In this document: positions 9,172 to 52,470 of the stretch, one piece after another
Layout of the letters: each line of letters starts with the position of its first letter
Position numbering within the stretch: position 1 is the stretch's first letter
From: a bacterium
Lineage (GTDB): Bacteria; Patescibacteriota; Dojkabacteria; B142; OLB20
NCBI GenBank assembly: GCA_021463645.1
Contig: JAJTYI010000005.1
Span: 64,680-128,679 of the forward strand
Length of the DNA: 64,000 bases
Direction: 5' to 3'
Position numbers and translations under genes: made by a program
Notes under the pieces: generated by a model
What the model was told of the DNA's origin: nothing
Seen by the model: the letters and a program-made list of their open reading frames with translations, nothing else
Database searches by the model: none

Positions 9172-9876
9172 TCAATTCACTTGTTTCATTTTGTTTTTCA
9201 TATCTACCTCCCATAACAACCTATGGGAGTCATAGATGTATGCAAATATCCCAACAGCGCATGTAATCACCGCGATCATCAGTAAAAATTGTGCGAAAAA
9301 CATTCCAGTAGCAAAAAATACAATGTTAATTATTACTAAAAGTAACCTAATCTCTGTAGCAGAAATGCCTTGAGTACTTATATTGAATTGTTTTATTGTT
9401 ATCGCCCTCATTAATACTGCTTGGAACATGAAAGATATCAAAATGACAATTACCGCTACATACAGATCAAGGGATTTGGGAAAGATAATAAAATAACCAA
9501 TTCCTAATGAATATAAGAATACATAATCCAGAAAATGATCCATAAAGAATCCCCAAAGCACTAATCCGGTATTCCTTGCTCTGCCTACAGCTCCATCTAG
9601 AAGATCCGTTAGGTACTGAAGTATGACTATAGAAGCTATTAGGAAATACACCCATCTAGAATCGCTTAAAACATATGATACAAAGATAGCCAAAAGACTC
9701 CAAATTATTGTTAACAAAGTTAAATGATAAGTTTGAAGAAATTTTGGAACAGCAGGCAATAATTTATCTACTAACATTTTGTCTAATGGATACAACAGAT
9801 GATTAGTTTTCGACTTCTTCAAGTACTCTGTACTGCTCATAAGAGGATTTATAATATTATAAATAAGATATATCAA
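9172..9876 (-). CDS. CDP-alcohol phosphatidyltransferase family membrane protein
   Basis: DLLDGAVGRARNTG...FFMDHFLDYV resembles the D-x2-DG-x2-AR...D-x3-D signature, and the protein is multi-pass hydrophobic. The real start may be the internal Met at 9840 (MSSTEYLKK). Confidence 0.65.
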   Translation of the reverse strand: MIYLIYNIINPLMSSTEYLKKSKTNHLLYPLDKMLVDKLLPAVPKFLQTYHLTLLTIIWSLLAIFVSYVLSDSRWVYFLIASIVILQYLTDLLDGAVGRARNTGLVLWGFFMDHFLDYVFLYSLGIGYFIIFPKSLDLYVAVIVILISFMFQAVLMRAITIKQFNISTQGISATEIRLLLVIINIVFFATGMFFAQFLLMIAVITCAVGIFAYIYDSHRLLWEVDMKNKMKQVN

Positions 9877-33428: not shown

Positions 33429-33488
33429 CTTAACCTTTCACCATCAATCATTTTAGTCTATGATATTAAGTATGTATGCATAAATTAA

Positions 33489-37904: not shown

Positions 37905-39319
37905 TTGACGACTCTCTGACCTTCAGGTGTGTCTTCAATTACAACAGCATACTCTTCTTTCAGTCTATCTCTAAGTTCATCCGACTCTGTCCAATTTCCT
38001 AATTTTCTAGCAAGTTGCCTTTTTTCGATTAATTCCTGGGCTTCGGGATTGATTTCGACTTTTGCATTATCTAGAAGGTTAAGTCCTAATACACGATCAA
38101 AATCCTTAACTGTCGCCAATTTATCTGCATCTTTTATTTCATATTTAACTAATTCCCACAACAAAGCCAATGCTTCAGGAATGTTAAAATCATTCTCTAA
38201 TGCCCGGACAAATCTTTCCTTGTAAAGTTGCGCTATTTCGCCCTTCTCCTTAGTATTTTGTAATTGATTTACTTGTTTCTTTAATCTTTTGTAGGATAAA
38301 TTTGCACCCTGAAGTGCTTCCCAAGTGAAGTTTTGCTTGGATCTGTAATGTGCATTCAGGAAAAAATATCTCAAAATAATGGGGTCAAAGCCTTTTTCAA
38401 TCACATCATCAAGAATGTAGGCAGTTCCTTCTGATTTACTCATTTTCTTTCCATCAATTAATAAATGTTCGTTGTGCAACCAGTAATTGACGAATTTTAC
38501 TCCATTTGCTGATTCGCTCTGTGCAATTTCGTTTGTATGATGAATTGAAATATGTTCTACACCGCCCATATGGAAATCAATTGTTTCCCCTAATAACTCT
38601 CCTGCCATTGCACTACATTCGGTATGCCATCCAGGGATACCTTCTCCGTTTTCAACTTCACTTGAACTAAACGGAGATGGCCAATATTGAAGAGCATTTT
38701 TATGTGCTCCGGTCCTGAAAAACCATAATGCAAAATCATGTGGACTTTTCTTATCGGGATCATTTACATCACCTTTGCCCTCTCCAGCTCTATTTTTCTC
38801 AAGTACCTGTCCACTCAATTCTGTATACTTGGGGAATTTTGACACTTCAAAGTAGACTGCTTTATCGGTTTCGTAGGCAAATCCTTCTTTAATGAGTTTT
38901 TTAATTAATTCTTGCATTTGCTCAATATATTTACTTGCGACAGGTTTATGGTCGGGTTCAAGAATATTCAGCGCGGAAGTGTGGGCTTCAAACGAATCTA
39001 TATACTTTTTGGCAATTGTTTGAGGATCAAGATTTTCTCTTTTAGATGCTTTTTCCATTCGATCTTCACCTGAATCAGCATCACCTATGTTGTCCCCTGT
39101 GAGATGCCCTACATCCGTATAATTACGCACAAAAGTGACATCATTCCCAAGATAAACCAAACTCCTGCGAATCAAATCAGCTAAAGTCATCCCTCTCAAA
39201 TTACCAATGTGTTGCACCCAATAAACCGTCGGCCCACAATGATAGAACGATACTTTTTTTTCTGTGAGTGGTTTGAACTCTTCCAGACTCTTTGTCAATG
39301 TATTGTAGACCTTTAACAT
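37901..39319 (-). CDS. cysS: Cysteine--tRNA ligase
   Basis: Class I motifs HIGN (CGPTVYWVQHIGNLRG) and KMSKSEG are present. The 472-aa length is typical of CysRS. Confidence 0.95.
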   Translation of the reverse strand: MLKVYNTLTKSLEEFKPLTEKKVSFYHCGPTVYWVQHIGNLRGMTLADLIRRSLVYLGNDVTFVRNYTDVGHLTGDNIGDADSGEDRMEKASKRENLDPQTIAKKYIDSFEAHTSALNILEPDHKPVASKYIEQMQELIKKLIKEGFAYETDKAVYFEVSKFPKYTELSGQVLEKNRAGEGKGDVNDPDKKSPHDFALWFFRTGAHKNALQYWPSPFSSSEVENGEGIPGWHTECSAMAGELLGETIDFHMGGVEHISIHHTNEIAQSESANGVKFVNYWLHNEHLLIDGKKMSKSEGTAYILDDVIEKGFDPIILRYFFLNAHYRSKQNFTWEALQGANLSYKRLKKQVNQLQNTKEKGEIAQLYKERFVRALENDFNIPEALALLWELVKYEIKDADKLATVKDFDRVLGLNLLDNAKVEINPEAQELIEKRQLARKLGNWTESDELRDRLKEEYAVVIEDTPEGQRVVN

Positions 39320-39335
39320 TCAATTGTATTAATAA

Positions 39336-40127
39336 TTAATATTTGTCCGTGAAATATTCGTTAGTAAATAATACCATTAATAACCAAAGTGGTTTTCCTT
39401 GACCAAGATTTTGAGATTTGTGTTGTCTGCATGCCTTATATTTTAATGGAATAAATTTTAAAATCGGCAACCTCATACTCGGCAATGCTTGCACAACCTC
39501 TTTTTCTTTTGCCATATGGAATGGAAGCTTTATTGATTTTAATACTCTTTTAGTCAATGTTTTATACAAAATTATTATTCCAGGATGTTTTTCTTCAACC
39601 AAATCATGAACAATTTTAGTTAGTGCCACATGATCAGGATGTCCATAAAGTCCAGCTCTTTCATAAGTCACAATAATGTCTGGTTGAAACTTATTTAATT
39701 CTGCATCAAGTTTCTTTGTAATCTCGTTCTCTTCCAGCTCGACTTTTCCATCATGGAAATCCCAAATCTCGTAATCTTCACAACCTAATACTTTTATAGC
39801 TTTCTCATATTCTTTTTCTCTAATTCTCGCGAGTTCTGTTTCAGATACTTTTAATATCTCATCACCTTTCTCGCCTTTGGTTACACAAATATGCTTCAAT
39901 TCTACATCTTGATTCCTGGAAAAGTTTGCAATAAAACCTCCAGAAAGCATAGTTTCATCATCCGGGTGAGGATCGATTACTAGAATTTTTATTTTTTCCT
40001 TCTTTCCAGTTAATTTTTTAATATTAAATTTTGGTAATTTAATTTCGTTAACAAACAACAATGCCACCTGGAGACAGACAAAACCCAGGAATAACACTCC
40101 TAGTATAATTTTGACTGCTGTCGTCAT
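39336..40127 (-). CDS. PIG-L/LmbE family deacetylase with an N-terminal membrane anchor
   Basis: VIDPHPDDE and GHPDH motifs are present. I prefer the Met at 40127 (MTTAVKIILG). The longer track ORF (to 40175) runs through an upstream terminator hairpin. Confidence 0.8.
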   Translation of the reverse strand: MTTAVKIILGVLFLGFVCLQVALLFVNEIKLPKFNIKKLTGKKEKIKILVIDPHPDDETMLSGGFIANFSRNQDVELKHICVTKGEKGDEILKVSETELARIREKEYEKAIKVLGCEDYEIWDFHDGKVELEENEITKKLDAELNKFQPDIIVTYERAGLYGHPDHVALTKIVHDLVEEKHPGIIILYKTLTKRVLKSIKLPFHMAKEKEVVQALPSMRLPILKFIPLKYKACRQHKSQNLGQGKPLWLLMVLFTNEYFTDKY

Positions 40128-40140
40128 TGTATTAACATAA

Positions 40141-40185
40141 AAAATAAAAAAGACCCTGTGATTGTTATGAAACAATTACAGGGCC
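40141..40185 (-). terminator. Intrinsic terminator (minus strand)
   Basis: The minus strand reads GGCCCTGTAATTGTT-TCAT-AACAATCACAGGGTC followed by TTTTTTATTTT. The stem is 13 bp. Confidence 0.6.
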
Positions 40186-40366
40186 TCTTGGAAAGATGCG
40201 GTCCCACCTGTGGTTTTACTCAAGGTGATTATTTAATTTTAGCAATTTTGACAGATACTGTCTGTCTCAGTTGCCGGTTCCCAACGATTCCGACTTTCTT
40301 AACAGAATTATAACAAATATTCATTTATTAAGAAAATTATGTCAGTCAGAAATTAATTACGGCTAA

Positions 40367-41026
40367 TTAGTCACCTCTAGCAAATACCAAGCCATAAACT
40401 TTCTCAACTCCTCCTTTTCTTAATACTTTTGCACATTCTTCTAATGTGCTTCCACTCGTCATTACATCGTCTACAAGTAAGACTGACTTATAGCAAATCT
40501 CTTTTTTTAATTGGAAAACATCTTTCAGATTTGCCAGACGCTCCTTCCTGTTTAGATTAACTTGTGATTTTGTATTTTTTGTTCTTTTTAGACAATTATC
40601 AACTTTAGAAGTGATTACTTTTGATAGTAGTTCAGCCTGGTTGAAACCCCTGTAATTTTCTTTAAATCTATGAAGTGGAACTGGAACAATAACATCATAC
40701 TGAATATCAAAATCGAGGAGTTTGTTCTTCATAAGATATCCAATTTCTGCAGAAATAGAAAAATACAAGTTATACTTCATTTCTTCAATTAAAATCTTGG
40801 CAAATTTGTTGTAATGAGCAACAACAATTACCCCGTTTAAATCTGAATTTTTCTGACATTCTCTGTGGACTAATTCTTCAGCACAATCTTTATGGCAAAC
40901 ATGACAAAAATGTGTTTTGTAATAATCAAGTTTTGTATTTTTGCATTCATCGCACAATAGAGTTTTCTGCGTATCACAGAAAACACACATTCTAGGAAAC
41001 AATATATCTATTAGAGAGACCAGCAT
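40367..41026 (-). CDS. ComF-family phosphoribosyltransferase-like protein (ComFC type)
   Basis: N-terminal Cys clusters (CVFC...CDEC, CHVC) and the PRT motif VLLVDDVMTSGSTL. Confidence 0.8.
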   Translation of the reverse strand: MLVSLIDILFPRMCVFCDTQKTLLCDECKNTKLDYYKTHFCHVCHKDCAEELVHRECQKNSDLNGVIVVAHYNKFAKILIEEMKYNLYFSISAEIGYLMKNKLLDFDIQYDVIVPVPLHRFKENYRGFNQAELLSKVITSKVDNCLKRTKNTKSQVNLNRKERLANLKDVFQLKKEICYKSVLLVDDVMTSGSTLEECAKVLRKGGVEKVYGLVFARGD

Positions 41027-41220
41027 CGTCGATAAGTCGATTTAATAATAAGAAAGACATGTATTAATAATTTATACAATAGGAATATGGAAAATACCTG
41101 AAATTATCCACAATTTATAATGATCTGAATTACGAAAATTATTAACTCACCCTTAGTCAATTTTGAGCTATTTACACATGCGCTAGCAATGGTTATTATG
41201 TATTAATCACAGACTAAGTT

Positions 41221-42060
41221 ATGTATATAGCAATCGATGTAGGCGGAACAAAAACCGCATTCGCGAAAATTGACAAATTAGACAAACCTACCATCAGTAG
41301 TAAAGAGACTATATCCACACCCCAGTCTTATGATGAAGCACTTGAAAAAATTAGCATACAGATAGAAAAGTCTAGCAAATGGCAAAAGATAGAGGGAATT
41401 TCTATCGCACTCCCAGGTACTGTCGGTAATGAAAAAATCGAATTATTAACAAATTTACCAGACTGGAATCACAAACCACTTTTTAACGATATCTCTAAAA
41501 AATTCAATACAAAAGTAATCATGCGTAATGATGCCGTAGCCACTGCACGTGCTGAGAGATATTTCGGACTTGCAAAAAACGAAATTAGATATTTATATTG
41601 CATCATAGGTACTGGATTTGGAGCCACTTACGTTCACAGAGTAGGAGATAAATTTTTAGAGTTACCCTTAGAGCCTGAATATATGATAGTAAACTCACAT
41701 GGGACTCACAGAAATCATTTTCACACCCCTGGATTGCTTGGAGCTTATGCGACTGGAGCCGTGATACAAGAAAAAACCGGAATTCACTCATTGGCAAGCT
41801 TAGAAGATAGTGATCCAATTTGGAATGAGATGGTACAATACCTAGGAATCGGTTTGAATAACCTTGTTACACTATTCAAACCACCTGTAATTATTTTCTC
41901 AGGTGGTATAATTGTGCACAGAAAATTCTTATTAAATTTACTTCGAATGGAATTAGCAAAATATGTTGAGTACTTGCCCCAACCAACTCTCAAAATAACA
42001 GAGTTTGGTGATGACGCCAGCCTATATGGCGCGATTTCATTGCTTTACGAATTAAAATAA
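41221..42060 (+). CDS. ROK-family protein (sugar kinase-like)
   Basis: IAIDVGGTKT (ATP-binding), VIMRNDAVATARAE and GTGFG motifs. The stop overlaps the valS start (TAATG). Confidence 0.65.
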   Translation: MYIAIDVGGTKTAFAKIDKLDKPTISSKETISTPQSYDEALEKISIQIEKSSKWQKIEGISIALPGTVGNEKIELLTNLPDWNHKPLFNDISKKFNTKVIMRNDAVATARAERYFGLAKNEIRYLYCIIGTGFGATYVHRVGDKFLELPLEPEYMIVNSHGTHRNHFHTPGLLGAYATGAVIQEKTGIHSLASLEDSDPIWNEMVQYLGIGLNNLVTLFKPPVIIFSGGIIVHRKFLLNLLRMELAKYVEYLPQPTLKITEFGDDASLYGAISLLYELK

Positions 42061-45000
42061 TGCTTCCCAAAGGACCATATCAACCACAAACTACAGAGGA
42101 AGAAATTTTAGATTTTTGGCTGAAAAACAAATTCTATTCTCCCGAATATAAATCGCAAAAGGAACTTTCAACCACAAACGACGAGAACCGCGAGACATTT
42201 TCTATTGTGTTACCTCCTCCAAATGCAAATGGGAACCTTCACTTAGGACACATGTCCGGTTATGTTTATCAAGATTTGATGGGTAGATATTATCGTATGA
42301 AAGGGAAAAAAGTTCTGCTGTTGCCGGGAAAAGACCATGCAGGTATTTTAACTGAAGTCGTTTTTGAAAAAGAACTCGAGAAAGAAGGTTTATCGAAAAA
42401 AAGTTTAGGTCGAGAAGAATTCTATAAACGTTGTTATGACTTCTGCATTAAAAACTCTGAGAATGCTCGAAGGCAGGAAAGGAACATTGGTTTATCAGCA
42501 GATTTTGATAGAGAATTATTTACACTTGATCCTAAAATTGTTGATGAGGTTTTAAAAGCTTTCGAATTAATGTATGAAGACAAACTTGTATATCGCGATA
42601 AAAGAATAATTAATTGGTGTCCTAGATGTCAGTCTGCACTTGCAGATATCGACACTGAATTCAAAGATTCAGTTTCCCCTTTCTTCTACTTTAAATACGG
42701 ATTTCTAGATCCCGAAATAGATGCAATAAAAATTAAAAATGACTTCTCACAGATGGATGAAGTTAAATGGATTTTTGAAAGATCGTCTAGCCCGGACGGT
42801 AAAGAAATTTATCCATTTGCAGTAGGCACAATTGATGGTGGATACCAAATTGAAACAGGGGAAATGATTGTACATTGTATTGGTTATGATAACGAAAAGT
42901 TAATTAAAGGAGATGTAATAGTCGGCAAACCGTATGCAATTATGATGAGGCTAAATAAAAAGTTCAGTTTAATACTTTCCAACCCAAAATTTGATGGGGA
43001 TTTGGACAAAGAATTAACGAAGCTTTGGAAAGTTGCTGAATCAAAGAAAAGAGATGCTGGAATTCATTTTATAAAATTCGAGGACTTTCCAGAGGATAAA
43101 TATTACACGAATGGTTTCGTTCTCGGTACTGTAAGACCAGAGACCAAATTTGGAGATACTGCGCTTGCAGTTGACCCCGATGATGGAAGATACAAAGACT
43201 TCGTTGGAAAAGAATTTGAAGTTAAGACATTGTTGGGGACATCTAAAATAAAAGTTATTGCAGATAATGCAGTAGATGAAAGTTTTGGAACTGGAATGGT
43301 CAAAGTCACTCCTGCACATTCACCCGAGGATTGGGACATAGCCAAACGTCACCCCGATGAAGCTTTTCCAGAGAAGCAGGTCATAGACTTCAATGGCAAA
43401 ATGAATCACTTAGCTGGCAAATATGAAGGATTATCAGTGAAGGAAGCACGCAAAGTGATGTTACAAGATATGAAAACGAATGGAATGCTCGTTTACTTAG
43501 ATGAAAATTATGAGAATAGGATTCGTATCTGTGAAAGATGTAAACACCCAATAGAACCCCTTATCTCTTACCAATGGTTTGTAGACACAGAGCCATTAAA
43601 AAAAGAAGCAAAAAGATTAGTTGAAGTAGGATTAACTGAAATCATGCCTGAAGGCAAAAAGAAAACTTATTTACAATGGATGGAGAGTCAGGAAGATTGG
43701 TGCATCACGAGACAATTATGGTGGGGATATCGAGTACCAGTTTGGTACAAAGGTGAACATTCTCAATACATCACCGAAACTGGTGAAGTGAAAGAAAAGA
43801 TCGGCGATAAAGTTATAAACAATCCCGAAGATTATGAGGGATTAATCTATGTTGGACATGATAATCCGAATGTTCCCCAAATTTATTTGATCCCAGGTAA
43901 ACATGGTTATATGTCGCGGAAAATTTTTCCCGAGATAGTAGAAAAATATCCAAATGCAGTCACAGCGGAAATTGAAAACATTGATGAACCATCACAAGAA
44001 GATTATGCCAATGGTCTCAAAGAATATGATTTAAAGAATTCGGTCATCATTGCACATTCTATGGGTTGTTCTGCAATTATTAATTATATCTCTGAAAAAA
44101 ATATTCCAATTGAAAAACTGGTATTAATTGCACCAAAATTAATTTTTAAGGAAAAAGATAAAGCCAAGAGATACACTAAAATGCTCGAAGATTTGAGATT
44201 TGACAAACTTAAGACTTTGGTAAAGGAATTAGTGATAATTTATTCTGATAATGACGAGCATGTGACTCTAGAGGATATAAATGAATCAATCAAAAAACAA
44301 TTACCCTATGCAGAGTATGCTTTACAAAAAGATGCAGATCATTTTGCAACTCCAAAACTTGATATCTTTCCGCAATATTTATGGAAATTATTGGAAAATC
44401 AAAATAAATATGGGGAAATCTCAGTCCTAAGACATGGAGAGACAGAATACAACAAACTAGGCAAATTCCACGGAATTACCGATATTGAACTCAACCAAAT
44501 TGGAGAACAACAAGCCCAGAATGCAATTGAAAAACTTGACTCTAACTATGATGTAATTATTACCTCTCCACTAAAACGAGCACATCAGACAGCAAATATT
44601 GTAAATGAAAAACTTGGACTAGAAATCATAGAAAATGAATTGTTAAAAGAAAGAAATTTCGGCAACTTAGAAGGACTTACCTGGGAAGAATTTACTGACA
44701 AACATCCTGAAGAGGCTTCAAAAAATAATATAGATTTCCAGCCAGCACTTGAAAAAGGCGAATCGATTGAAGCAGTTGAAAAGAGAGTTGAAGAGTTTAT
44801 CGATTGGTTGAGAAAATCGGGTTATAAGAATCCATTAATTGTGACACATGCAGGCATAATTAGAATATTCGAGAGAAAATTAAACAATTTAACTCCAGAG
44901 CAATCTAGAGAAAATGATCCAAAAAATCTTGAACTGCGGAATTATTCTCTAAACAAACCAGAATGGATTCAAGACGAAGACGTACTTGACACATGGTTCT

Positions 45001-45860
45001 CCTCTGGGCAATGGCCATATTTAACCTTAATGGTCAAGGAAGGTGACTTTGAGGAGTTCTACCCTACCCAGGTCATGGAAACTGGCTGGGATATATTGTT
45101 ATTCTGGGTTACCAGAATGATGCTATTAAACCCATATAGAGCAAAGAAATTAAACACCGACGCTACAGATGAACAAATCGTCCCTTTCAAAGATGTGTAC
45201 TTACATGGATTGGTACTAGATAAAAACGGGGTCAAGATGAGTAAGTCAAAAGGCAACGGAATCGATCCTTTCGAAATGATGCAAAAATACGGAACTGATG
45301 CGTTGAGATATAGTTTTGTCAAAGGAAATTCAGCTGGTCAAAATTATCGTTTATATGAAGAGAAAGTTTCGTCTAATCGCAATTTCTGCAATAAAATCTG
45401 GAATGCATCCAAGTTCGTATTATTTAACATAGAAGATAGTGCTGACAAATTAATAAATTCGGACAGGTCCGAATTAGAATTCACACAAGACGATACTGAA
45501 ATGTTGGAACATATTGATAATTTAATTGAGGAAACAACCAGGAGATTAGATGAATTCAAATTCGGTATCGCAGCTGACGAACTTTATGAATCATTCTGGC
45601 ATTATTTTGCGGATATTTACCTAGAGAAAATTAAAACAAGACTTTACACGAAAGACCGTGAAGGAAACCCAATTAACACATCTGATGAGGAGATAAAATC
45701 AAGATTTGCAGCCCAATGGTTGATACTATACTCGCTAGAAACATATCTAAAATTACTACATCCATTTATTCCATTTCTAACTGAGAAAATCTGGCTGTCG
45801 TTACCGAAAAGAGAGGAAGAGGCTGAGACAATAATGTATTCGAATTGGCCAGAATCCTGA
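42060..45860 (+). CDS. valS: Valine--tRNA ligase with large in-frame insertions (1266 aa)
   Basis: PPPNANGNLHLGHM (HIGH), TVRPETKFGDTALAV, DWCITRQLWWGYRVPVWY, QDEDVLDTWFSSGQWPY and GVKMSKSKGN (KMSKS). About 400 aa lie between VPVWY (~43734-43748) and QDEDVLDTWF (~44970), where E. coli ValRS has about 35. Confidence 0.9.
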   Translation: MLPKGPYQPQTTEEEILDFWLKNKFYSPEYKSQKELSTTNDENRETFSIVLPPPNANGNLHLGHMSGYVYQDLMGRYYRMKGKKVLLLPGKDHAGILTEVVFEKELEKEGLSKKSLGREEFYKRCYDFCIKNSENARRQERNIGLSADFDRELFTLDPKIVDEVLKAFELMYEDKLVYRDKRIINWCPRCQSALADIDTEFKDSVSPFFYFKYGFLDPEIDAIKIKNDFSQMDEVKWIFERSSSPDGKEIYPFAVGTIDGGYQIETGEMIVHCIGYDNEKLIKGDVIVGKPYAIMMRLNKKFSLILSNPKFDGDLDKELTKLWKVAESKKRDAGIHFIKFEDFPEDKYYTNGFVLGTVRPETKFGDTALAVDPDDGRYKDFVGKEFEVKTLLGTSKIKVIADNAVDESFGTGMVKVTPAHSPEDWDIAKRHPDEAFPEKQVIDFNGKMNHLAGKYEGLSVKEARKVMLQDMKTNGMLVYLDENYENRIRICERCKHPIEPLISYQWFVDTEPLKKEAKRLVEVGLTEIMPEGKKKTYLQWMESQEDWCITRQLWWGYRVPVWYKGEHSQYITETGEVKEKIGDKVINNPEDYEGLIYVGHDNPNVPQIYLIPGKHGYMSRKIFPEIVEKYPNAVTAEIENIDEPSQEDYANGLKEYDLKNSVIIAHSMGCSAIINYISEKNIPIEKLVLIAPKLIFKEKDKAKRYTKMLEDLRFDKLKTLVKELVIIYSDNDEHVTLEDINESIKKQLPYAEYALQKDADHFATPKLDIFPQYLWKLLENQNKYGEISVLRHGETEYNKLGKFHGITDIELNQIGEQQAQNAIEKLDSNYDVIITSPLKRAHQTANIVNEKLGLEIIENELLKERNFGNLEGLTWEEFTDKHPEEASKNNIDFQPALEKGESIEAVEKRVEEFIDWLRKSGYKNPLIVTHAGIIRIFERKLNNLTPEQSRENDPKNLELRNYSLNKPEWIQDEDVLDTWFSSGQWPYLTLMVKEGDFEEFYPTQVMETGWDILLFWVTRMMLLNPYRAKKLNTDATDEQIVPFKDVYLHGLVLDKNGVKMSKSKGNGIDPFEMMQKYGTDALRYSFVKGNSAGQNYRLYEEKVSSNRNFCNKIWNASKFVLFNIEDSADKLINSDRSELEFTQDDTEMLEHIDNLIEETTRRLDEFKFGIAADELYESFWHYFADIYLEKIKTRLYTKDREGNPINTSDEEIKSRFAAQWLILYSLETYLKLLHPFIPFLTEKIWLSLPKREEEAETIMYSNWPES

Positions 45861-45924
45861 AATGCACTTTTAGAACACCTTTACCCCAATACAAAATCAA
45901 TATCTGATTCTGTAACCCTTTGAA

Positions 45925-47034
45925 TTACAAATGAATTACACCGGGTTTTTGTGGATTTACATTGTAATGTTGCATCCATGTATCAACGATTAATTCAGGC
46001 GTTTCTCGATCGTATTGGTCAAAAGGAATGAGAGCACCCCGCACTCCGCTAGCCCACCTATATGCTTGAGAAGATTCGGTATCAGGTCTAGGGTAATTTT
46101 GAATCACACAATCTCTATATACATGGGCGTTACGAGCATCCACATGGTATTCAGGAGAAGTATAATGAAGATTTAAATATCTTCTACCTGAATTTGGCGA
46201 ATTGTTGGGAGTCGTCTGAACATGTTCGTAACATGATTGCAATACGGATGTATACTCATGTGGTTTCCTCACCTCCTTCATTGCTACAAGAAAAGGCCAT
46301 ACACTTTCAGGTAATTTTGAAAATGTTATATTATCATGAGAATTAAGTTTTCCCAATAAATTAGTCAGATTTGTCTCTATCTTTGCACGAACATTTGGAT
46401 CTAACTCACCGTATTTATTTACTACAATCGCTAATGTATCAAAAAACAATTCGTTCGATGCCGGGGTGTCTTTTGTAGCAGTACCAAGAGCATTCATCCG
46501 GCCAAGCGCAACATTCATCGCTTCTACATCCCCAAGCCTAGCGGCCATATTTGCAAGATTCAGAGTAGTATCGAAATTTAAATTGTCTATATTTTGCAAA
46601 GTTCTTGCTCTCATGTCCATATACAACTCAGTAACTTCTTCAGTAGTTGTAACATAACCTGCATCTATCGGATTTGTTAATCTTTCTTTTTTAACAATTG
46701 TTGGTTTGCTGTCCATCTGAGAATTTAACTCTCCCTGTGAATAAGACATATTCACGCTTTTCATCAACAAATGTGCCCTTTGTATTTCCGATATTCTTGT
46801 ATAATCCATACCTCCTGTATTATGTAGATTCGCATTCAATAAATCAGTTGTCTCTTGTAATCCCTTAGGATCGATAGGTGCTGCCTCCTCTTCGATAATA
46901 TCTGCCAAATCAGCTAATGCAGCTGTATTAACTAACTCCGCATCAGTTCCAACATCCGACTCAATATGCGGATTTATTCCTTCATCACCATCAATTGGGG
47001 GTATTGAGGCATTTAGCGATGCGTCAGTGGACAT
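45925..47034 (-). CDS. Hypothetical protein (369 aa) between the two copies of the valS 3' end
   Basis: An uninterrupted ORF with an acidic N-terminus MSTDASLNASIPPIDGDEGINPHIESD. No motifs recognised. Confidence 0.65.
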   Translation of the reverse strand: MSTDASLNASIPPIDGDEGINPHIESDVGTDAELVNTAALADLADIIEEEAAPIDPKGLQETTDLLNANLHNTGGMDYTRISEIQRAHLLMKSVNMSYSQGELNSQMDSKPTIVKKERLTNPIDAGYVTTTEEVTELYMDMRARTLQNIDNLNFDTTLNLANMAARLGDVEAMNVALGRMNALGTATKDTPASNELFFDTLAIVVNKYGELDPNVRAKIETNLTNLLGKLNSHDNITFSKLPESVWPFLVAMKEVRKPHEYTSVLQSCYEHVQTTPNNSPNSGRRYLNLHYTSPEYHVDARNAHVYRDCVIQNYPRPDTESSQAYRWASGVRGALIPFDQYDRETPELIVDTWMQHYNVNPQKPGVIHL

Positions 47035-47213
47035 AAACTTTGATTAATATTTATTATTTAATACATTCTACACTATTTCTTTGTTACTTTATTAGTGTTC
47101 TTTCTTCCGAATTACCGATTTCTTAATCAAAGATGTAGTGGAGGAATCGATGAAGTTTAATAAATAATCCGTCTAATGATAGATCGGTACATTGGAATAG
47201 CCCAGGAGAAAAG

Positions 47214-47369
47214 AGATTTGCAGCCCAATGGTTGATTTTATATTCTCTAGAAACATATCTGAAATTGCTACATCCATTTATTCCATTTCTAACAGAGAAA
47301 ATTTGGCAGTCATTACCGAAAAGAGAGGGAGAAGCGGAGACAATTATGTATAGTAAGTGGCCTGACTAA
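47214..47369 (+). pseudogene. Orphan duplicate of the valS 3' end (last ~51 codons plus stop)
   Basis: AGATTTGCAGCCCAATGGTTGAT...CCATTTATTCCATTTCTAAC...TTACCGAAAAGAGAGG aligns colinearly with 45702-45860. Identity is roughly 85-90% by eye. It encodes FAAQWLILYSLETYLKLLHPFIPFLTEKIWQSLPKREGEAETIMYSKWPD*. No upstream valS sequence accompanies it. Confidence 0.8.
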
Positions 47370-47406
47370 GGTTTCGTTAGAAACGATAGACAGACCACTT
47401 TTCATT

Positions 47407-48708
47407 TTAAGGGAGAGAAACTGTGTAACTCGCAAGTTTAATATTTTCAGCCAACTGCAATTGCCCATTTGAAAGATAAGCATTACCTGGAATTGTTGAA
47501 ACTACTATTGGGTTTGTCGTTTGTGCCTTGATTGTGAAACTACCCAACACTTGATTATTTGGAATGTATCCAGACATAGTTGAAACGTCTACACAAACTT
47601 CATTTGTAGTGATTGCACTATTAGATGTATTACACGTACCAATTGTTAGTAAATTACCACCGGCTTCTACAAACGAACCCTCAACAATTGATGCGCCTTG
47701 GACCTTTAGGCGAATCTGATAACTGGTAACATAGCCTGTGATATTTGTGTTCGGAGGTTGTGCCATAATAGCAACTTTAAACTCACCATTAGGTGACGTT
47801 TTAAAAGTTGAGGGGAACAAACTCATAGCTGCTGGATTACTAGCTGGTGTTGGGGTTACTCCCACACTAGAAGGAGCAGGAGTAACAGTTGGAATTACAA
47901 CAGAAGGCACTGGAGTTGGCATTTCTGTTACTTCCAATTCATCTGTCGGTACTACTCTCGCAGGTAAAATATTGATTTGTGCAGACTCTACTGCTTTAAT
48001 TGCGTATGTGTCATAGTATACATAACCCACCACTTTGACCGTACAAACACCAGGATTTAGCAATTTAAGTACTAATACGGCATCGACCCCAATCGATGGG
48101 CTCCAACCCGCTTCACAATCCCCTGTCGCTGACCAATTCCAGTCTACGCCTTTATACGCAGCATTTACTTTTCCATCCAAAGATATTCCCACAGTATAAT
48201 CTTCTCCAAGATATGCATCGCCATTTGTAAGAAGTTCGGTATCAACAGTACTTTTTATCTTTAAAACTTTCTGATAGAACACTACCGTTTCGGTTTTTCC
48301 ATTAACTGTTACGTTTACAGTAATCTTACACGAGCCAACAGTATTAAATCTTCTCGAAGTAGCTACTTCCTGAGTATTCGGATATCTTTTGACAACACCG
48401 CAGAAATTTATTTTCCAATCTGGCAAGTCATTCGTATTATTTACACCTGTGTACCTAAAATATAAAGGCATGGCCTCCCTCACTGGAATATACTGCGGTT
48501 TAGTATACTTTACATTCCCTTTTTGGACATTATCATAAACAGCTGCTGAAGAGTCCTCAACTTCTGTGAGTCCTGTTGTGATTCCGTCCCCGCTTCCCTT
48601 CCCAATCATATATCCAATTGAAGAAAAAGTTATAACACTTAGTACGACGATGAAAGTGATAAGAGCTTTTACTTTATTCGGTTCGATTGTATTTTTCATA
48701 AAAAACAA
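47407..48708 (-). CDS. Membrane-anchored or secreted protein with Cys-paired beta-sandwich repeats and a Pro/Thr/Val linker (433 aa)
   Basis: N-terminal hydrophobic anchor. W.INFCG...GSCKITVNV and WNWSATGDCE...GVCTVKV motifs. Linker TEMPTPVPSVVIPTVTPAPSSVGVTPTP. Confidence 0.7.
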   Translation of the reverse strand: MFFMKNTIEPNKVKALITFIVVLSVITFSSIGYMIGKGSGDGITTGLTEVEDSSAAVYDNVQKGNVKYTKPQYIPVREAMPLYFRYTGVNNTNDLPDWKINFCGVVKRYPNTQEVATSRRFNTVGSCKITVNVTVNGKTETVVFYQKVLKIKSTVDTELLTNGDAYLGEDYTVGISLDGKVNAAYKGVDWNWSATGDCEAGWSPSIGVDAVLVLKLLNPGVCTVKVVGYVYYDTYAIKAVESAQINILPARVVPTDELEVTEMPTPVPSVVIPTVTPAPSSVGVTPTPASNPAAMSLFPSTFKTSPNGEFKVAIMAQPPNTNITGYVTSYQIRLKVQGASIVEGSFVEAGGNLLTIGTCNTSNSAITTNEVCVDVSTMSGYIPNNQVLGSFTIKAQTTNPIVVSTIPGNAYLSNGQLQLAENIKLASYTVSLP

Positions 48709-48762
48709 ATATTAATAATATGAGTATAATTTACTACCATTCTTCTGCAGTTGCAAAAATTT

Positions 48763-49707
48763 TTACTTGGAAACTAAAATATCAGCACCTTTAACTTCTT
48801 CTACCATATCTTCTAATTCCGCTACTATCTGGTTAAGCTTTGGGGATTGATTCTCCATCCCGATATGCGATTCCAATTCTACTCGAATTTCATGATTCTT
48901 GAGATTGAATCTTTTTAAAACGGCAAGCTTGTCTGGAACATTTTTTAATTCATTTTTAATTAGGTCAATTACTTCTTCGAAATGGATTACACCAATCACA
49001 TCATCTCCCTCAAGTGGCAAAGTGAATCTATCTTGTACAAAAACCCCTGCGAAATTATCAACTATCTTAAGATTAAGATTCTGGCTATTTAGATCTGCTT
49101 CTAATCTATCATTATCGAGCTCAGTATATGAGTAATCCTCTAACATGACACCTTCACCATCAAACATGAAATATTTAAAAACTTTTATAGATACTGAGTT
49201 TTTTATAGAATCCATACCGAGGAAGTTTTGTTCCCATATATCGGAAACCTCTTCTGACTTTGCAATAAGAATGTATACACTTTCTTCAGGATTTGACGTA
49301 TCAACCACTATCCACTTTACAACAACACTAGAGTCAAATAGTTCATATCTAAGTCTTACCTGAAGTGTTTCACTTAAAGATTTTACCAAGTCGATATAAG
49401 TGACTAACCTGGACCAATTGTGATCTAACTTTAATTTTTGATCAAGAATATTTGTAATTGTGTCAATCCTACCCAAAGATTGAGTTGTAGAAACAATATC
49501 TCTATCGAAAAATGCATCAGGAATATCCTCAGAGTAACGATTTACCACCCATCTTTGCTCTTTACAAAGATTGATTATCATCCCTTCTGTATCTATGGCA
49601 GATTCGTTTGGAAAAATTTTTAACTGATCTAATTTATGGACTCTTTCTCTTGTTTGTCTTCGTTTGTCTATCAGAGAAGTTTTATCAAAATTACTCAGTT
49701 TGTCCAT
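48763..49707 (-). CDS. Hypothetical protein (314 aa)
   Basis: ORF only. It overlaps the upstream TatD gene by 17 nt, which suggests an operon. Confidence 0.6.
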   Translation of the reverse strand: MDKLSNFDKTSLIDKRRQTRERVHKLDQLKIFPNESAIDTEGMIINLCKEQRWVVNRYSEDIPDAFFDRDIVSTTQSLGRIDTITNILDQKLKLDHNWSRLVTYIDLVKSLSETLQVRLRYELFDSSVVVKWIVVDTSNPEESVYILIAKSEEVSDIWEQNFLGMDSIKNSVSIKVFKYFMFDGEGVMLEDYSYTELDNDRLEADLNSQNLNLKIVDNFAGVFVQDRFTLPLEGDDVIGVIHFEEVIDLIKNELKNVPDKLAVLKRFNLKNHEIRVELESHIGMENQSPKLNQIVAELEDMVEEVKGADILVSK

Positions 49708-50551
49708 GTGCTAGAAAATCGTAGATTAATTTAATATTTGATGCTTCATTTATTTTAGTCTTTGAACCTCGCGGTTGCAAAAAAGGTGCATCTGTTTCTA
49801 GAAAAATATTATTTTTATACAAATCAAGAAGTGCTTCAAACTCGCCAGCAATTTCATGAATACAAAATCTTAATTCTTCGGCTGATTTGTAAGTTGCAAT
49901 CCCATTAACTCCTATTGCAAAACCACTATCAATAGCATTCTTTGCATCATTAAGATTTCCTGTAAACGAGTGAAAGATCCCAAATAAGTCCAACCCACTC
50001 TCAAGAATAAACTTCAAGCAATCATCTAGTGAATCGCGGTGATGCATTGTCAACGGGAGACTGTATTTGCTAGATATCTCAAGTTGTCCGATGAACAATT
50101 TCTTCTGAAGAGATTTACTTCGCTCTTTTTCCTCATCAGTAAGGTTTTGCTTTTCTATCCAATAATAATCAAGTCCACACTCACCGATCATTAAAACATC
50201 TTCTTTGTTTTCTTCAACTAATTGTGCAAGTTCGCGTAATAGTTGGTCAATCTTTTTCTCATCGATACTATCATCATACAAATCCGACCCAGGAACAACT
50301 ACTTCCGGATCTATTCCGACAGTTGGGAAAATTATTTCAGGAAATTTCTTGTGTTTTTGCAGGGTTTTGAGAGATGTTTCCAGGTCAACTGCAACATCAA
50401 CCATATAATTCACTCCATTATCTTTGGCTCTTTTAACTGTGGCGTCAAGCTCATCATCAGAAAGGCTCATCAAATGAGTATGGGTATCGAACAAAGAGTC
50501 AACATTACCAAATTTTTCCTCAAAGTATTGGAGTAACTTAGAGTTTTTCAT
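49691..50551 (-). CDS. TatD-family metal-dependent hydrolase (DNase)
   Basis: FDTHTHL, GECGLDYY, LTMHHRD, GIFHSF and LETDAPFL motifs. Confidence 0.9.
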   Translation of the reverse strand: MKNSKLLQYFEEKFGNVDSLFDTHTHLMSLSDDELDATVKRAKDNGVNYMVDVAVDLETSLKTLQKHKKFPEIIFPTVGIDPEVVVPGSDLYDDSIDEKKIDQLLRELAQLVEENKEDVLMIGECGLDYYWIEKQNLTDEEKERSKSLQKKLFIGQLEISSKYSLPLTMHHRDSLDDCLKFILESGLDLFGIFHSFTGNLNDAKNAIDSGFAIGVNGIATYKSAEELRFCIHEIAGEFEALLDLYKNNIFLETDAPFLQPRGSKTKINEASNIKLIYDFLAHGQTE

Positions 50552-50562
50552 TTATAGTGAGA

Positions 50563-52470
50563 TTAATCAGTAGAATCTTTCTCAGCCAAGACTTTTTCGG
50601 GATCGAGTTTGTCAAACAGAAGTTCTACTTCACTGAGTTTTAGATGTGTGATTAGTTGCCTAGTACAATCCTCATCAAATACTGATTTCCACATATCTGA
50701 ACCCATTTCAGTTTTAATGGTTTCTCGTCCCAACATTCTTAATAATTTGCCAGATGTTTCCGGCATGAATGGATACATTATTATTGAGAGATCATACAGG
50801 ACATTTACTAAATTTAATAAAATTTCCTGAGCCTGGTCTTTCCCATCTTTGCCTTCTTTCACACGCTCCCAAACTTTCGTTGCATCAAAGTATTGATTTG
50901 CTAATCTCGAATAACCCATAACTGTGTCCAATGCATTAACTAGCCATGGTCCATTACTTCCATTTTGAAGTTCAGTAAAACGATTTAAATATTCAAATTG
51001 TTCACTTCCTAGCCAATTGTTTATTTCTGGATTATAAACCATATCCTTTTCTCCTGATTCCCTTTCCTTTTCCGTTATACCCTCAAAAAATAAGAAAGCT
51101 TTCGTTTTTATCATAAGCTTCAAAGCTGTTTGACTCAGAGTCATATCTGGCTTGAAATTTTCAGATTCTAATTCACCATTAAATTTACTATTAATAAAAG
51201 TCAATGTTCTATTCACAAGATTTCCGAGATTAGCTACCAATTCATTGTTTACTGAAGCCACAAAATCCTCCCAAGTGAAATTTCCTTCTTTATTTTCTGG
51301 TAAATTTCTAGCAATATAATATCGAACCAAATCAACACCATATTTCTCTGCAATAACCTTGGAGTCTATTGTCCAGTTTCTGCTTTTACTGAATTTTTTG
51401 CCTTCGTAATTCAAAAACTTATTAACTACAACAAACTTTGGTAGTTGATATCCATCATCTAAACCCATCAATTGACCTGGCCACATCAAAGCATGAAAGA
51501 CAAGATTATCTTGACCCATAAAGTTATAGATTACAGAATCGGAACTTTTCCACCAATCTTCCCAATTTCTGCTCTGTCCTTCGTCTCTTTTGAAAATTGT
51601 GTCACTAGTTCCTTCTTCCATCTCACACCAAGCTCTCGTAGCTGAGAGATATCCAATCACAGCCTCAAACCAAACATAAATATGTTTGCCTGCAAAATCT
51701 TTCAATTGTTTGCTTTCGTCACGCTTTTTGATTTCTTCAATCGGTAAATCAATACTCCAATCCATATCTCGTGTGATTGCCCTCCTCTGTAAACCTTCTT
51801 TTAGCCATCCATTTGCTTCGTTCCAAACCCATTTCTTCCAATTTTCTTTATTTGCATCAAGATATTCGCGCAACTGCGATTCTAATTTCTCAAAATTCAA
51901 GAAGTAATGTTCTGTATCCTTCAAAGTGACTTTTGAACCAGTTAATTTACTCACTGGGTCAATGAGCTCTCCATCTTTCAACCATCTCCCACAGCTTTCA
52001 CATTGATCGCTTCTTTGGTTGCCTGCATTACAGTAAGGACAGGTTCCTTCGACATATCTGTCGGGTAGAAATTGATTATCATCAATTGCGTAATATTGTT
52101 GCATTACGCCTTTTTCGATATAGCCGTTATCCAACAGTTTCAAGAAAACCTCGTGTACCACTTCTTTGTGTTTTTGAGTGGTTGTCTTTGTGTACAAGTT
52201 ATAGTCTAGTCCGTACATCTTGAAAAGTTCTAAATCTTTCTTATGATACATATCGACGACCTCCTCTGGTTTTAATCCTTTTTTGTCGGCCTCAACGGTG
52301 ATTGGTGTTCCATAACAATCTGAACCAGATACCATTAAGACATCATCACCTTTGAGTCGATGAAATCTCGCAACTATATCTGCAGGAAGCAAATACCCTC
52401 CCAAATGTCCAACATGTATATCACCATTAACATATGGCCATGCTACTCCGATAAGAACTTTTTTACTCAT
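50563..52470 (-). CDS. metG: Methionine--tRNA ligase
   Basis: PYVNGDIHVGHL (HIGH-type), the zinc knuckle CPYCN...CESCG, and KFSKS (KMSKS-type). Confidence 0.95.
   Translation of the reverse strand: MSKKVLIGVAWPYVNGDIHVGHLGGYLLPADIVARFHRLKGDDVLMVSGSDCYGTPITVEADKKGLKPEEVVDMYHKKDLELFKMYGLDYNLYTKTTTQKHKEVVHEVFLKLLDNGYIEKGVMQQYYAIDDNQFLPDRYVEGTCPYCNAGNQRSDQCESCGRWLKDGELIDPVSKLTGSKVTLKDTEHYFLNFEKLESQLREYLDANKENWKKWVWNEANGWLKEGLQRRAITRDMDWSIDLPIEEIKKRDESKQLKDFAGKHIYVWFEAVIGYLSATRAWCEMEEGTSDTIFKRDEGQSRNWEDWWKSSDSVIYNFMGQDNLVFHALMWPGQLMGLDDGYQLPKFVVVNKFLNYEGKKFSKSRNWTIDSKVIAEKYGVDLVRYYIARNLPENKEGNFTWEDFVASVNNELVANLGNLVNRTLTFINSKFNGELESENFKPDMTLSQTALKLMIKTKAFLFFEGITEKERESGEKDMVYNPEINNWLGSEQFEYLNRFTELQNGSNGPWLVNALDTVMGYSRLANQYFDATKVWERVKEGKDGKDQAQEILLNLVNVLYDLSIIMYPFMPETSGKLLRMLGRETIKTEMGSDMWKSVFDEDCTRQLITHLKLSEVELLFDKLDPEKVLAEKDSTD

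Follow-up and report, generated by a model that had tools for sequence, protein, structure and literature searches.

A second valS 3' end, stranded behind a neighbouring gene, probably marks a joint between two haplotypes in a Candidatus Dojkabacteria bacterium

Introduction

In E. coli K-12, the element e14 and phage 21 integrate in the 3' end of icd and supply a replacement end for the gene. Variable surface loci, for their part, are exchanged through conserved flanking genes, as is the case of the pneumococcal cps locus (dexB-aliA) and of the O-antigen clusters (galF-gnd). Homology-facilitated illegitimate recombination (HFIR) has been described in the natural transformation of Acinetobacter, Streptococcus pneumoniae and Pseudomonas stutzeri, and E. 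coli conjugation gives rise to it at low frequency (PMC3240628; PMC5361080). Likewise, Rhs, CDI and T6SS effector loci undergo C-terminal displacement, which leaves orphan 3' modules (Kirchberger et al., 2017, PMC5361080; Jackson et al., 2009, cited therein).

Here, we analyze a window of 64,000 nucleotides (assembly GCA_021463645.1, contig JAJTYI010000005.1, positions 64,680 to 128,679 of the forward strand; positions below are those of the window) from an uncultivated bacterium of the Candidatus Dojkabacteria (CPR), in which the 3' end of valS occurs twice on either side of a single gene. The event is of a known kind and of modest interest, and it involves no new mobile element or mechanism.

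The locus resembles that of e14 and phage 21 at icd in that the last ~150-165 bp of a gene are directly duplicated with ~85-90% identity, both copies being in frame and one of them a pseudo-tail, and in that the repeats bracket DNA for which relatives (L014 and L036) present an empty site. On the contrary, the valS locus harbors neither integrase nor mobile-element genes, and the DNA between its two copies is a conserved chromosomal neighbour rather than foreign DNA. With HFIR, it would share one end anchored by homology and another joined without it, the addition of foreign DNA along with the loss of resident DNA, and a sharp joint devoid of recombinase sites. However, the present case is deduced from the genomes of natural populations of an uncultivated CPR bacterium instead of being observed in an experiment; the exact parental sequences lie outside the sampled genomes, and the direction of transfer is no more than probable.

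Similarly to Rhs, CDI and T6SS effector loci, a conserved gene body works with one 3' end while the other is stranded behind an intervening gene, a pattern that arises independently more than once (here in the window type and in L040). Yet valS is an essential housekeeping gene and not a polymorphic toxin, no immunity gene accompanies it, its two tails are only 3 aa apart with nothing diversified, and the stranded tail, instead of being displaced, probably came in with the gene next to it. As in cps and O-antigen clusters, hypervariable surface-protein genes are found between two conserved genes, valS and p314, in many arrangements and with mosaic identity tracts. The Dojkabacteria cassettes differ from these in encoding membrane-anchored proteins with a shared C-terminal module instead of polysaccharide pathways, in their CPR host, and in one junction that is illegitimate and leaves behind a fragment of a housekeeping gene.

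The valS gene and its neighbours

The valS gene (ValRS, 1266 aa; 42060-45860, plus strand) forms the left conserved border of a variable interval, and its ORF passes the NCBIfam valS equivalog cut-off (742 bits vs 704). Its catalytic core holds an inserted Ser_hydrolase domain and a His_Phos_1 domain (Pfam); our literature search, made in a limited collection, found no account of domain insertions in the ValRS of Dojkabacteria or CPR.

Convergent with valS lies orphan369 (369 aa; 45925-47034, minus strand), which is the only ORF between the two copies of the valS end, as reported by the initial annotation. This gene is lineage-restricted: a homologue search among 1.84e9 representative proteins retrieved only three relatives, and no match was obtained in Pfam, PHROGs, PADLOC or NCBIfam. 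A sequence search of the PDB gave only an insignificant match to the TPR-like region of LpoA (E 0.013). The AlphaFold2 model, built from a 2-sequence alignment, reached a pLDDT of 44.6, exceeding 50 only centrally, in a helical-repeat region at about aa 140-270 that itself shows dips.

Upstream of orphan369, intergenic DNA extends over 47035-47213, of which 47035-47159 is common to L038, a contig of the same species. Beyond the second valS tail, a native convergent spacer of 37 bp (47370-47406), identical in the junction alignment to that of L014 and L036 and containing the inverted repeat GTTTC-GTTA-GAAAC at 47371-47384, leads to p433 (433 aa; 47407-48708, minus strand). The latter is a predicted membrane-anchored surface protein, in which a TM segment at the N-terminus is followed by a Pro/Thr linker and by a module of ~150 aa at the C-terminus, and presents 96.5% aa identity to its counterpart in L014. 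The conserved gene p314 (314 aa; 48763-49707, minus strand) limits the variable interval on its right and directly adjoins valS in L003, L044 and L045.

Two copies of the valS 3' end

A repeat search within 44000-49000 retrieved a sole long direct repeat, 45702-45853 vs 47214-47365, which covers 152 nt at 88% identity without gaps and thus bears out the duplication of the valS end, in the same orientation and in frame, on which the initial annotation was built. The two copies, hereafter A and B, are both in frame through to the stop codon. In the MAFFT alignment, similarity sets in abruptly at AGATTTGCAGCC (45702 in A, 47214 in B) and ends at both stop codons, and the blastn E-value of A vs B (~7e-50) is far beyond chance.

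Copy A (45702-45860, plus strand) comprises the functional last 52 codons and the stop of valS, i.e., the true 3' end of the 1266-aa ORF. Copy B (47214-47369, plus strand) is 156 bp long and corresponds to the last 51 codons and stop (TAA 47367-47369) of a second valS allele; it reads RFAAQWLILYSLETYLKLLHPFIPFLTEKIWQSLPKREGEAETIMYSKWPD in frame up to its stop codon, with in-frame stops upstream and no start codon. The two copies differ at 19 positions, involving all base types and mostly synonymous third codon positions (dN/dS 0.08), and the encoded tails present 3 aa differences in addition to their last residues. At its 5' edge, the repeat contains 23 bp of uninterrupted identity, which fall in the strongly conserved coding stretch RFAAQW, and the longest exact run, read directly from the alignment, is shorter than 31 nt.

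Copy B has undergone neither frameshift nor internal stop, and all changes unique to it are synonymous. Since its changes relative to other valS tails are nearly only synonymous (dN/dS 0.05-0.08, the lower value being that obtained with the L014 tail), B was recently part of a working valS. The proposal that it is the remnant of a second, diverged valS allele is thus upheld, and B is best interpreted as what is left of this allele's 3' tail, presumably devoid of function. An extension of the repeat upstream of 47214 was considered and rejected: only a weak gapped similarity was seen by MAFFT, TAATCCGTCTAATGATAG vs TAACACATCTGATGAGGA, which we judged to be due to chance, and the in-frame translation of this upstream part is unlike the conserved TKDREGNPINTS stretch.

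Relatives and haplotypes

Two haplotypes may be distinguished at this locus. In H1, the resident state of the species and of older relatives, valS with tail A is followed by orphan369, whereas in H2, valS with tail B directly adjoins the surface-protein gene p433. The H1 state is exemplified by L038, which is 100% identical to the window over 32500-39700, 45250-47159 and 48000-48750; it carries A and orphan369 but lacks B, and presents a different cassette between 47159 and 47927. Homologues of orphan369 also adjoin valS without any duplicate in L015, L001 and L043 (61-65% aa identity) and in L041 (36% aa), where the homologue lies 2 bp from the valS stop. The identity of orphan369 to its L015 homologue (65%) is within the range of 59-92% obtained for the flanking genes. 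Given this adjacency in distant relatives, orphan369 is ancestral at that position and an old neighbour of valS, and the view that it represents a one-gene insertion of fresh cargo could not be maintained. Neither did composition set the interval apart, the GC content of 45861-47213 (0.35-0.39) showing no contrast with the flanks (0.34-0.385 in valS) and being uninformative in this respect.

The H2 state is seen in L014 and L036, where valS directly adjoins p433. Both are collinear with the window from exactly 47214 rightward, as indicated by the starts of the blastn HSPs, and the stop codon of B is common to their arrangement; the empty site expected by the initial annotation, with valS followed directly by the sequence found from 47370 onward, therefore exists. 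Copy B shares 92.8% identity with the L014 valS tail, whereas copy A is 86% identical to it, a value equal to that of the rest of valS. Identity to L014 thus amounts to 93% in B and 96% in the 3' block of p433, against a left-flank background of 88-90%. The reading of the initial annotation finds no support here either, since valS shows no step in divergence at 45702.

The window is accordingly equal to L038 up to ~47159 and to L014/L036 from 47214, with no valS similarity to the left of 47214. The 3' part of p433 (47407-47926) forms one block with copy B, and homology to L038 returns at 47927. The duplicated arrangement itself recurs in Logan assemblies from other samples, namely L037 (SRR32799347, a 93-kb contig) and L039 (SRR23814903). 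Copy A shows 100% identity across L037, L038 and L039, all contigs of this species, and copy B of L039 is 99.4% identical to that of the window.

On either side, the flanking sequence of the window agrees with that of L037 and L038, both H1-bearing, and not with that of L036. Recombination has made a mosaic of the region: 49750-50600, for instance, is 99.8% identical to L014 and only 85-90% to the conspecific L037, L038 and L039. The interval between valS and p314, which is a recombination hotspot and a hypervariable surface-protein locus, takes at least eight gene arrangements among relatives. A second, independent relic of a valS tail is found in L040, where a gene also sits between valS and the relic.

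Origin of the stranded tail

We favour, as the probable explanation, that B marks a non-homologous joint at 47213/47214 between H1 and H2, of the HFIR type, and that it rode in with the 3' part of p433. A fragment from an H2-type relative would have entered an H1 cell, bringing with it 156 bp of terminal valS sequence, the 37-bp spacer and the 3' part of p433. On its right side, this fragment would have undergone homologous recombination within the conserved 5' part of p433 and, on its left side, it would have been joined illegitimately to the intergenic DNA upstream of orphan369, the valS tail being a hitch-hiker at the edge of the imported piece. Over 48000-48250, identity reaches 100% among the window, L037, L038, L039, L014 and L036, which is compatible with a homologous anchor in the 5' part of p433. 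Directly observed are the repeat along with the collinearities, both parental haplotypes, a sharp joint, the undecayed state of B and the lack of an integrase; the direction of transfer and an uptake by transformation are inferred. The import of B with p433 is the more parsimonious polarity, and it reverses that of the initial annotation, in which orphan369 had been inserted and B displaced.

Several observations nevertheless stand against this import of B. An H1 fragment (3' part of valS, A and orphan369) entering an H2 cell yields the same chimera, and the closer similarity of B to L014 (93% vs 88-90%), measured over 152 nt, is not strong in statistical terms. Identity between the block formed by B and p433 and the sampled H2 genomes amounts to only 93-96%, which places the true donor outside the sampled genomes. 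Furthermore, B is 7% diverged from L014, whereas the sequence just downstream is diverged by ~1%, a discrepancy that requires a mosaic donor. Finally, the 54 bp at 47160-47213, present only in the relic-bearing haplotype, have no matching source among all fetched loci (blastn-short); they are probably a remainder of the original intergenic DNA on the orphan369 side.

The polarity proposed by the initial annotation thus stays a live rival, possible although clearly less probable. DNA from an H1 donor, made of the 3' part of valS, tail A, orphan369 and the region upstream of it, would have entered an H2-type cell, and B would be the displaced original tail. This could have taken place by HFIR, homology being provided by valS and the right end being joined illegitimately 156 bp ahead of the resident stop, or by a Campbell-type single crossover of a circularised fragment. 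The structure of the product is exactly that predicted, L014 and L036 resemble perfect empty sites, the highly conserved valS is a good homologous anchor, and L040 offers a second gene between valS and a valS-tail relic. In addition, A agrees with L014 at the 5'-most informative sites (45725/45726) and B agrees with L014 at most later ones, which fits a crossover near 45727-45730; this Campbell pattern is, however, limited to two adjacent sites and contradicted at 45782 and 45791. The scenario also needs an unsampled conspecific H2, both flanks matching L037/L038 and the left one being only ~88-90% identical to L036. Moreover, it needs a loss then a regain of orphan369, despite the ancient adjacency of this gene and valS in the clade, as well as a second event removing B in L038, and valS shows no step in divergence at or near 45702.

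A decayed island is largely refuted and very improbable. According to this explanation, a site-specific recombinase inserted an island with a replacement tail at the valS 3' end, and this island later lost its integrase and most of its other DNA; direct repeats bracketing a gene of unknown function, as well as the 23-bp identity at the 5' edge of the repeat, may recall such an origin. However, the latter lies in the conserved RFAAQW coding stretch, and relatives free of the repeat conserve the bracketed gene next to valS, the composition of the interval being that of the flanks. The initial annotation was right in noticing that no integrase is present: no integrase, transposase or phage-like match was obtained in the interval or in the annotated genes of 37901-52470, nor nearby in the related contigs of 93-100 kb that give the context of L037 and L038.

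It is just as improbable that copy B was kept for a function, either in a minus-strand RNA antisense to the valS 3' end, possibly produced by read-through from p433 or as part of the 5' leader of orphan369, or as a silent cassette for gene conversion. In favour of a function, B is intact and lies between two minus-strand genes, and a read-through RNA would be 88% complementary to A, while a derived base common to A and B at sites 45815 and 45827 hints at gene conversion. Nevertheless, recency accounts for the intactness of B, the differences of which are typical of functional alleles, and the conspecific L038 has no B, yet an identical valS tail and orphan gene. Scans for promoters and terminators remained at the level of shuffled sequence, and two tails only 3 aa apart offer no payoff in diversification.

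The metagenome-type source, with co-existing strains and a mosaic locus, could raise suspicion of a chimeric join of valS tails from two strains, but the chance of such an assembly artefact, which the initial annotation had named as what would undo its reading, is negligible, since the identical arrangement was obtained from independent runs (L037 and L039), the left junction, between A and orphan369, is spanned by the L002 assembly (DRR438489), and no exact match between the copies reaches 31 nt, a length that might confuse a k-mer assembler. A diversity-generating retroelement was also considered and rejected, the neighbouring genes encoding no RT domain and the mismatches being not adenine-specific.

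Recombination at the valS end

What the locus preserves is probably a clean and datable natural trace of an illegitimate recombination, anchored by homology, between diverged lineages of an uncultivated CPR bacterium at a surface-protein locus with fast turnover. It also illustrates that, when a duplicated gene tail brackets a gene, the bracketed gene need not be the insertion, as a tail can be carried along by the gene that flanks it on the opposite side. The sampled haplotypes (empty, H1, H2 and recombinant) constitute material for the study of recombination, and possibly of competence, in Dojkabacteria of activated sludge.

More tentatively, and with rather low confidence, the end of valS might be a recurrent recombination anchor or border for the gain and swapping of surface-protein cassettes in Dojkabacteria, of which stranded tails would be a regular by-product. 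If so, this would represent a gain of genes by tail displacement similar to that of Rhs and T6SS loci but without the toxin logic, and direct natural evidence of HFIR-type transformation between CPR lineages ~10-15% diverged.

The host may be able to take up DNA and to recombine it by means of RecA, as its gene content and the pervasive mosaicism suggest. A ComF-family-like gene is found at 40367-41026 (TIGR00201, E 7e-34, with an NCBIfam score under the curated cut-off), and a faint match to PilN is present downstream in L037.

A second valS tail downstream of valS

The 3' end of valS is present twice in the window. A repeat search over 44000-49000 returned a single long repeat, an ungapped match of 152 nt between 45702-45853 and 47214-47365 (88% identical, blastn E-value ~7e-50), and an alignment including the flanks showed that similarity starts abruptly at AGATTTGCAGCC and extends to both stop codons. 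The first copy (A, 45702-45860) is the true 3' end of a 1266-aa ORF (42060-45860), identified as valS by a Pfam match and a score above the NCBIfam valS equivalog cut-off. The second (B, 47214-47369) translates in frame as RFAAQW...MYSKWPD*, and translation of this region revealed no plausible start for its reading frame, with stop codons located just 5'. Between the copies lies a single ORF on the minus strand (orphan369, 45925-47034, 369 aa). The initial annotation was correct on the coordinates, the estimated identity and this ORF.

Copies A and B differ at 19 nucleotides, yet only by three amino acids and the terminus. All changes unique to B are synonymous and dN/dS is low (0.08 for A vs B, 0.05 for B vs the H2 contig L014 described below), so B diverged inside a working valS. 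Copy B has had essentially no time for decay, and the joining event is recent.

A chimera of two haplotypes

An orphan-free site of the kind anticipated by the initial annotation is found in an activated-sludge contig (L014) and in a related locus (L036), where p433, a predicted surface-protein gene (47407-48708 in the window, minus strand), lies directly next to valS with no gene between. Both are collinear with the window rightward from exactly 47214 (blastn), have the stop codon of B in common with it and, in the junction alignment, carry a spacer matching its 37-bp spacer. A contig of the same species (L038) is 100% identical to the window at 32500-39700, 45250-47159 and 48000-48750, and carries tail A and the orphan gene without B; its similarity to the window breaks at ~47159 and picks up at 47927 inside p433. 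Given the collinearity of L014 and L036 from 47214 and the match of L038 up to ~47159, the arrangement is a chimera of two haplotypes, H1 (valS-A-orphan) and H2 (valS-B-p433), whose non-homologous joint lies at 47213/47214. Found only in the relic-bearing haplotype, the 54 bp at 47160-47213 are most simply seen as a leftover of the original orphan-side intergenic DNA, lost in L038 through its own cassette replacement. Just left of the joint, a small divergent patch holds six SNPs private to the window within ~40 nt (47114, 47119, 47123, 47128, 47141 and 47152), sites at which L038 and two further conspecific contigs (L037, L039) mutually agree.

Which piece moved

In the most parsimonious history, which we regard as probable, an H1 chromosome would have taken up an H2-type fragment comprising the valS tail, the spacer and the 3' part of p433. 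The right end of this fragment would have been resolved by homologous recombination in the conserved 5' part of p433, and the left end by illegitimate joining. Both flanks of the window match the H1-bearing conspecifics L037 and L038, and the left flank of L036 is only 88-90% identical. Identity to L014 and L036 is higher than this 88-90% background for copy B (93%) and for the 3' block of p433 (96%), an excess that is statistically weak for B given its span of 152 nt; the exact donor of the B-p433 block is not among the sampled H2 genomes. Import from the L014 lineage is seen elsewhere in the window, at 49750-50600 (99.8% to L014, just 85-90% to L037, L038 and L039). The longer TatD/MetRS-3' block to which this segment belongs (49750-51250; 99.8-100% to L014, also to L036 from ~50500, 85-90% to the three conspecifics) is a window-specific import. 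The mosaic also includes the region of p314, a conserved 314-aa gene (48763-49707, minus strand), whose identity to L014 and L036 over 48938-49700 drops to 69-81%, under the genome background.

The initial annotation had proposed the reverse polarity, with the orphan gene and a replacement tail A inserted and B as the displaced original tail. Parts of this interpretation are supported (the duplicated tail, B as the remnant of a second, diverged valS allele, the existence of orphan-free loci and the lack of an integrase); the orphan as the inserted piece is not. Although this history yields an identical product, we consider it less likely, as it calls for a conspecific H2 haplotype outside the sampled set, for the orphan to be lost and then regained, and for an additional event in L038. 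Divergence does not change stepwise at 45702 (86% identity to L014 both in A and in the remaining valS), and the flanks are H1-like. Furthermore, members of the orphan family lie immediately 3' of valS, with no duplicate tail, in L038 and in the related loci L015, L001, L043 and L041; as the L041 homolog, located 2 bp from the valS stop, is only 36% identical, this adjacency is old.

Mechanism and related systems

Neither the interval, nor the annotated genes at 37901-52470, nor the related 93-100-kb contigs contain an integrase, transposase or phage gene, as the initial annotation had noted for integrases. Homology-facilitated illegitimate recombination is known from naturally transformable bacteria, according to passages of PMC3240628 and of PMC5361080 with its references 41, 42 and 47, and the structure in the window fits this process. 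A ComF-family-like gene is present nearby, with an NCBIfam score under the curated cut-off; the organism may be competent. In form, the arrangement resembles Rhs and T6SS loci, in which 3' ends are left stranded (PMC5361080). Here, by contrast, the gene concerned is valS, a housekeeping gene, and its tails encode almost the same protein sequence, so that no diversification results. Copy B is best seen as a recombination scar, a known type of event in an under-studied lineage. A diversity-generating retroelement is excluded, since the differences between A and B show no restriction to adenines and the neighbouring genes include no reverse transcriptase. An assembly artefact is ruled out by independent contigs: L037 (Logan, 93 kb, SRR32799347) and L039 (Logan, 11 kb, SRR23814903) both have valS, A, orphan, B and p433 in this order, with 100% identity to the window in A and 99.4% in B, and a third (L002, DRR438489) crosses the A/orphan junction.

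Another stranded tail occurs in L040 (ENA ERZ28574148 scaffold_2273; ValRS 85% identical), where an intact valS is followed by a 521-aa p433-like gene and then by a relic of ~65 nt (~9264-9328), or ~22 codons, QSLPKKEGKAETIMYSYWPK*, 83% identical to the tails of L001 and L015. It is followed by the hairpin AAAGAGGGCAAATGCCCTCTTT, which L001 and L015 carry 3' of their p433-like gene. As this relic is of another length and another allele, the event is independent of that in the window, and cassette exchange at the valS border may repeatedly leave such tails stranded.

The orphan gene

Only three relatives of orphan369 were found among 1.84 billion representative proteins. It matched nothing in Pfam, PHROGs, PADLOC or NCBIfam, and a PDB search gave only an insignificant match to the TPR-like region of LpoA. 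The AlphaFold2 model is poor (pLDDT 44.6), with moderate confidence only in a central helical-repeat region. Identity to the L015 homolog (65%) falls within the 59-92% span of the neighbouring genes. The L039 homolog (5190-6299) is interrupted in frame by a stop at codon 208, through either real pseudogenisation or an assembly error; the stop is a hint that the gene is dispensable. There is no indication of a role in mobility. The remotest of the clear homologs (P0124, 30% identical), at 1583-3487 of contig L042, is not beside valS; it lies directly 3' of an rve-family transposase/integrase gene, with a FemAB-family gene near.

A variable interval between valS and p314

ValRS relatives assign the window to Candidatus Dojkabacteria, a CPR lineage. 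About 20 related loci were gathered from genome and metagenome collections and their gene order was compared by tblastn. The interval from valS to p314 (48763-49707) is a hotspot of many gene arrangements: empty, with p314 directly next to valS (L003, L044, L045); valS-p433-p314 (L014, L036); valS-orphan-p433-like-p314 (L001, L015, L043); valS-orphan, four other genes and p314 (L038); valS-orphan-B-p433-p314 (window, L037, L039); three p433-like paralogs between valS and p314 (L004); and valS-521-aa gene-relic (L040).

The p433 protein (47407-48708) and its paralogs look like variable surface proteins, with an N-terminal membrane anchor, a Pro/Thr-rich linker and a common C-terminal module of ~150 aa that recurs in the 446-aa and 227-aa paralogs of L038 (14655-18629); the sole Pfam match of the family is a weak antifreeze-repeat. 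A 309-aa gene of L038 corresponds to the N-terminal part of p433 and terminates in the linker. In L039 (6672-7963), p433 is broken into ORFs of 336 and 111 aa, a real pseudogenisation or an assembly error.

Domain insertions in ValRS

The length of ValRS (42060-45860), 1266 aa, is due to a pair of seemingly intact enzymatic domains inside its catalytic core, flanked by the WWGYRVPVWY region and by DVLDTWFSS. Pfam identifies one as an alpha/beta Ser_hydrolase (PF06821, motif HSMG; aa ~606-785, nt 43871-44417) and the other as a histidine phosphatase (PF00300, motif RHGETEYN; aa 789-966). In Dojkabacteria homologs, the domains inserted or fused are diverse, with HAD, GNAT and PF04480 among them, and we found no paper on ValRS domain insertions in Dojkabacteria or CPR. 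The Ser_hydrolase domain (43871-44417) is present in the window, L036 and L003. In L037 (11812-11845) and L038, whose left flank is 100% identical to the window, an 11-aa linker takes its place, and L039 has the same gap. The domain is a presence/absence polymorphism within the species. Such core insertions may be worthier of attention than the valS-tail repeat. In the entire 64-kb window, ARAGORN detected no tRNA gene. Genes for three class I aminoacyl-tRNA synthetases are located inside 15 kb: CysRS (37901-39319), ValRS and MetRS (50563-52470).
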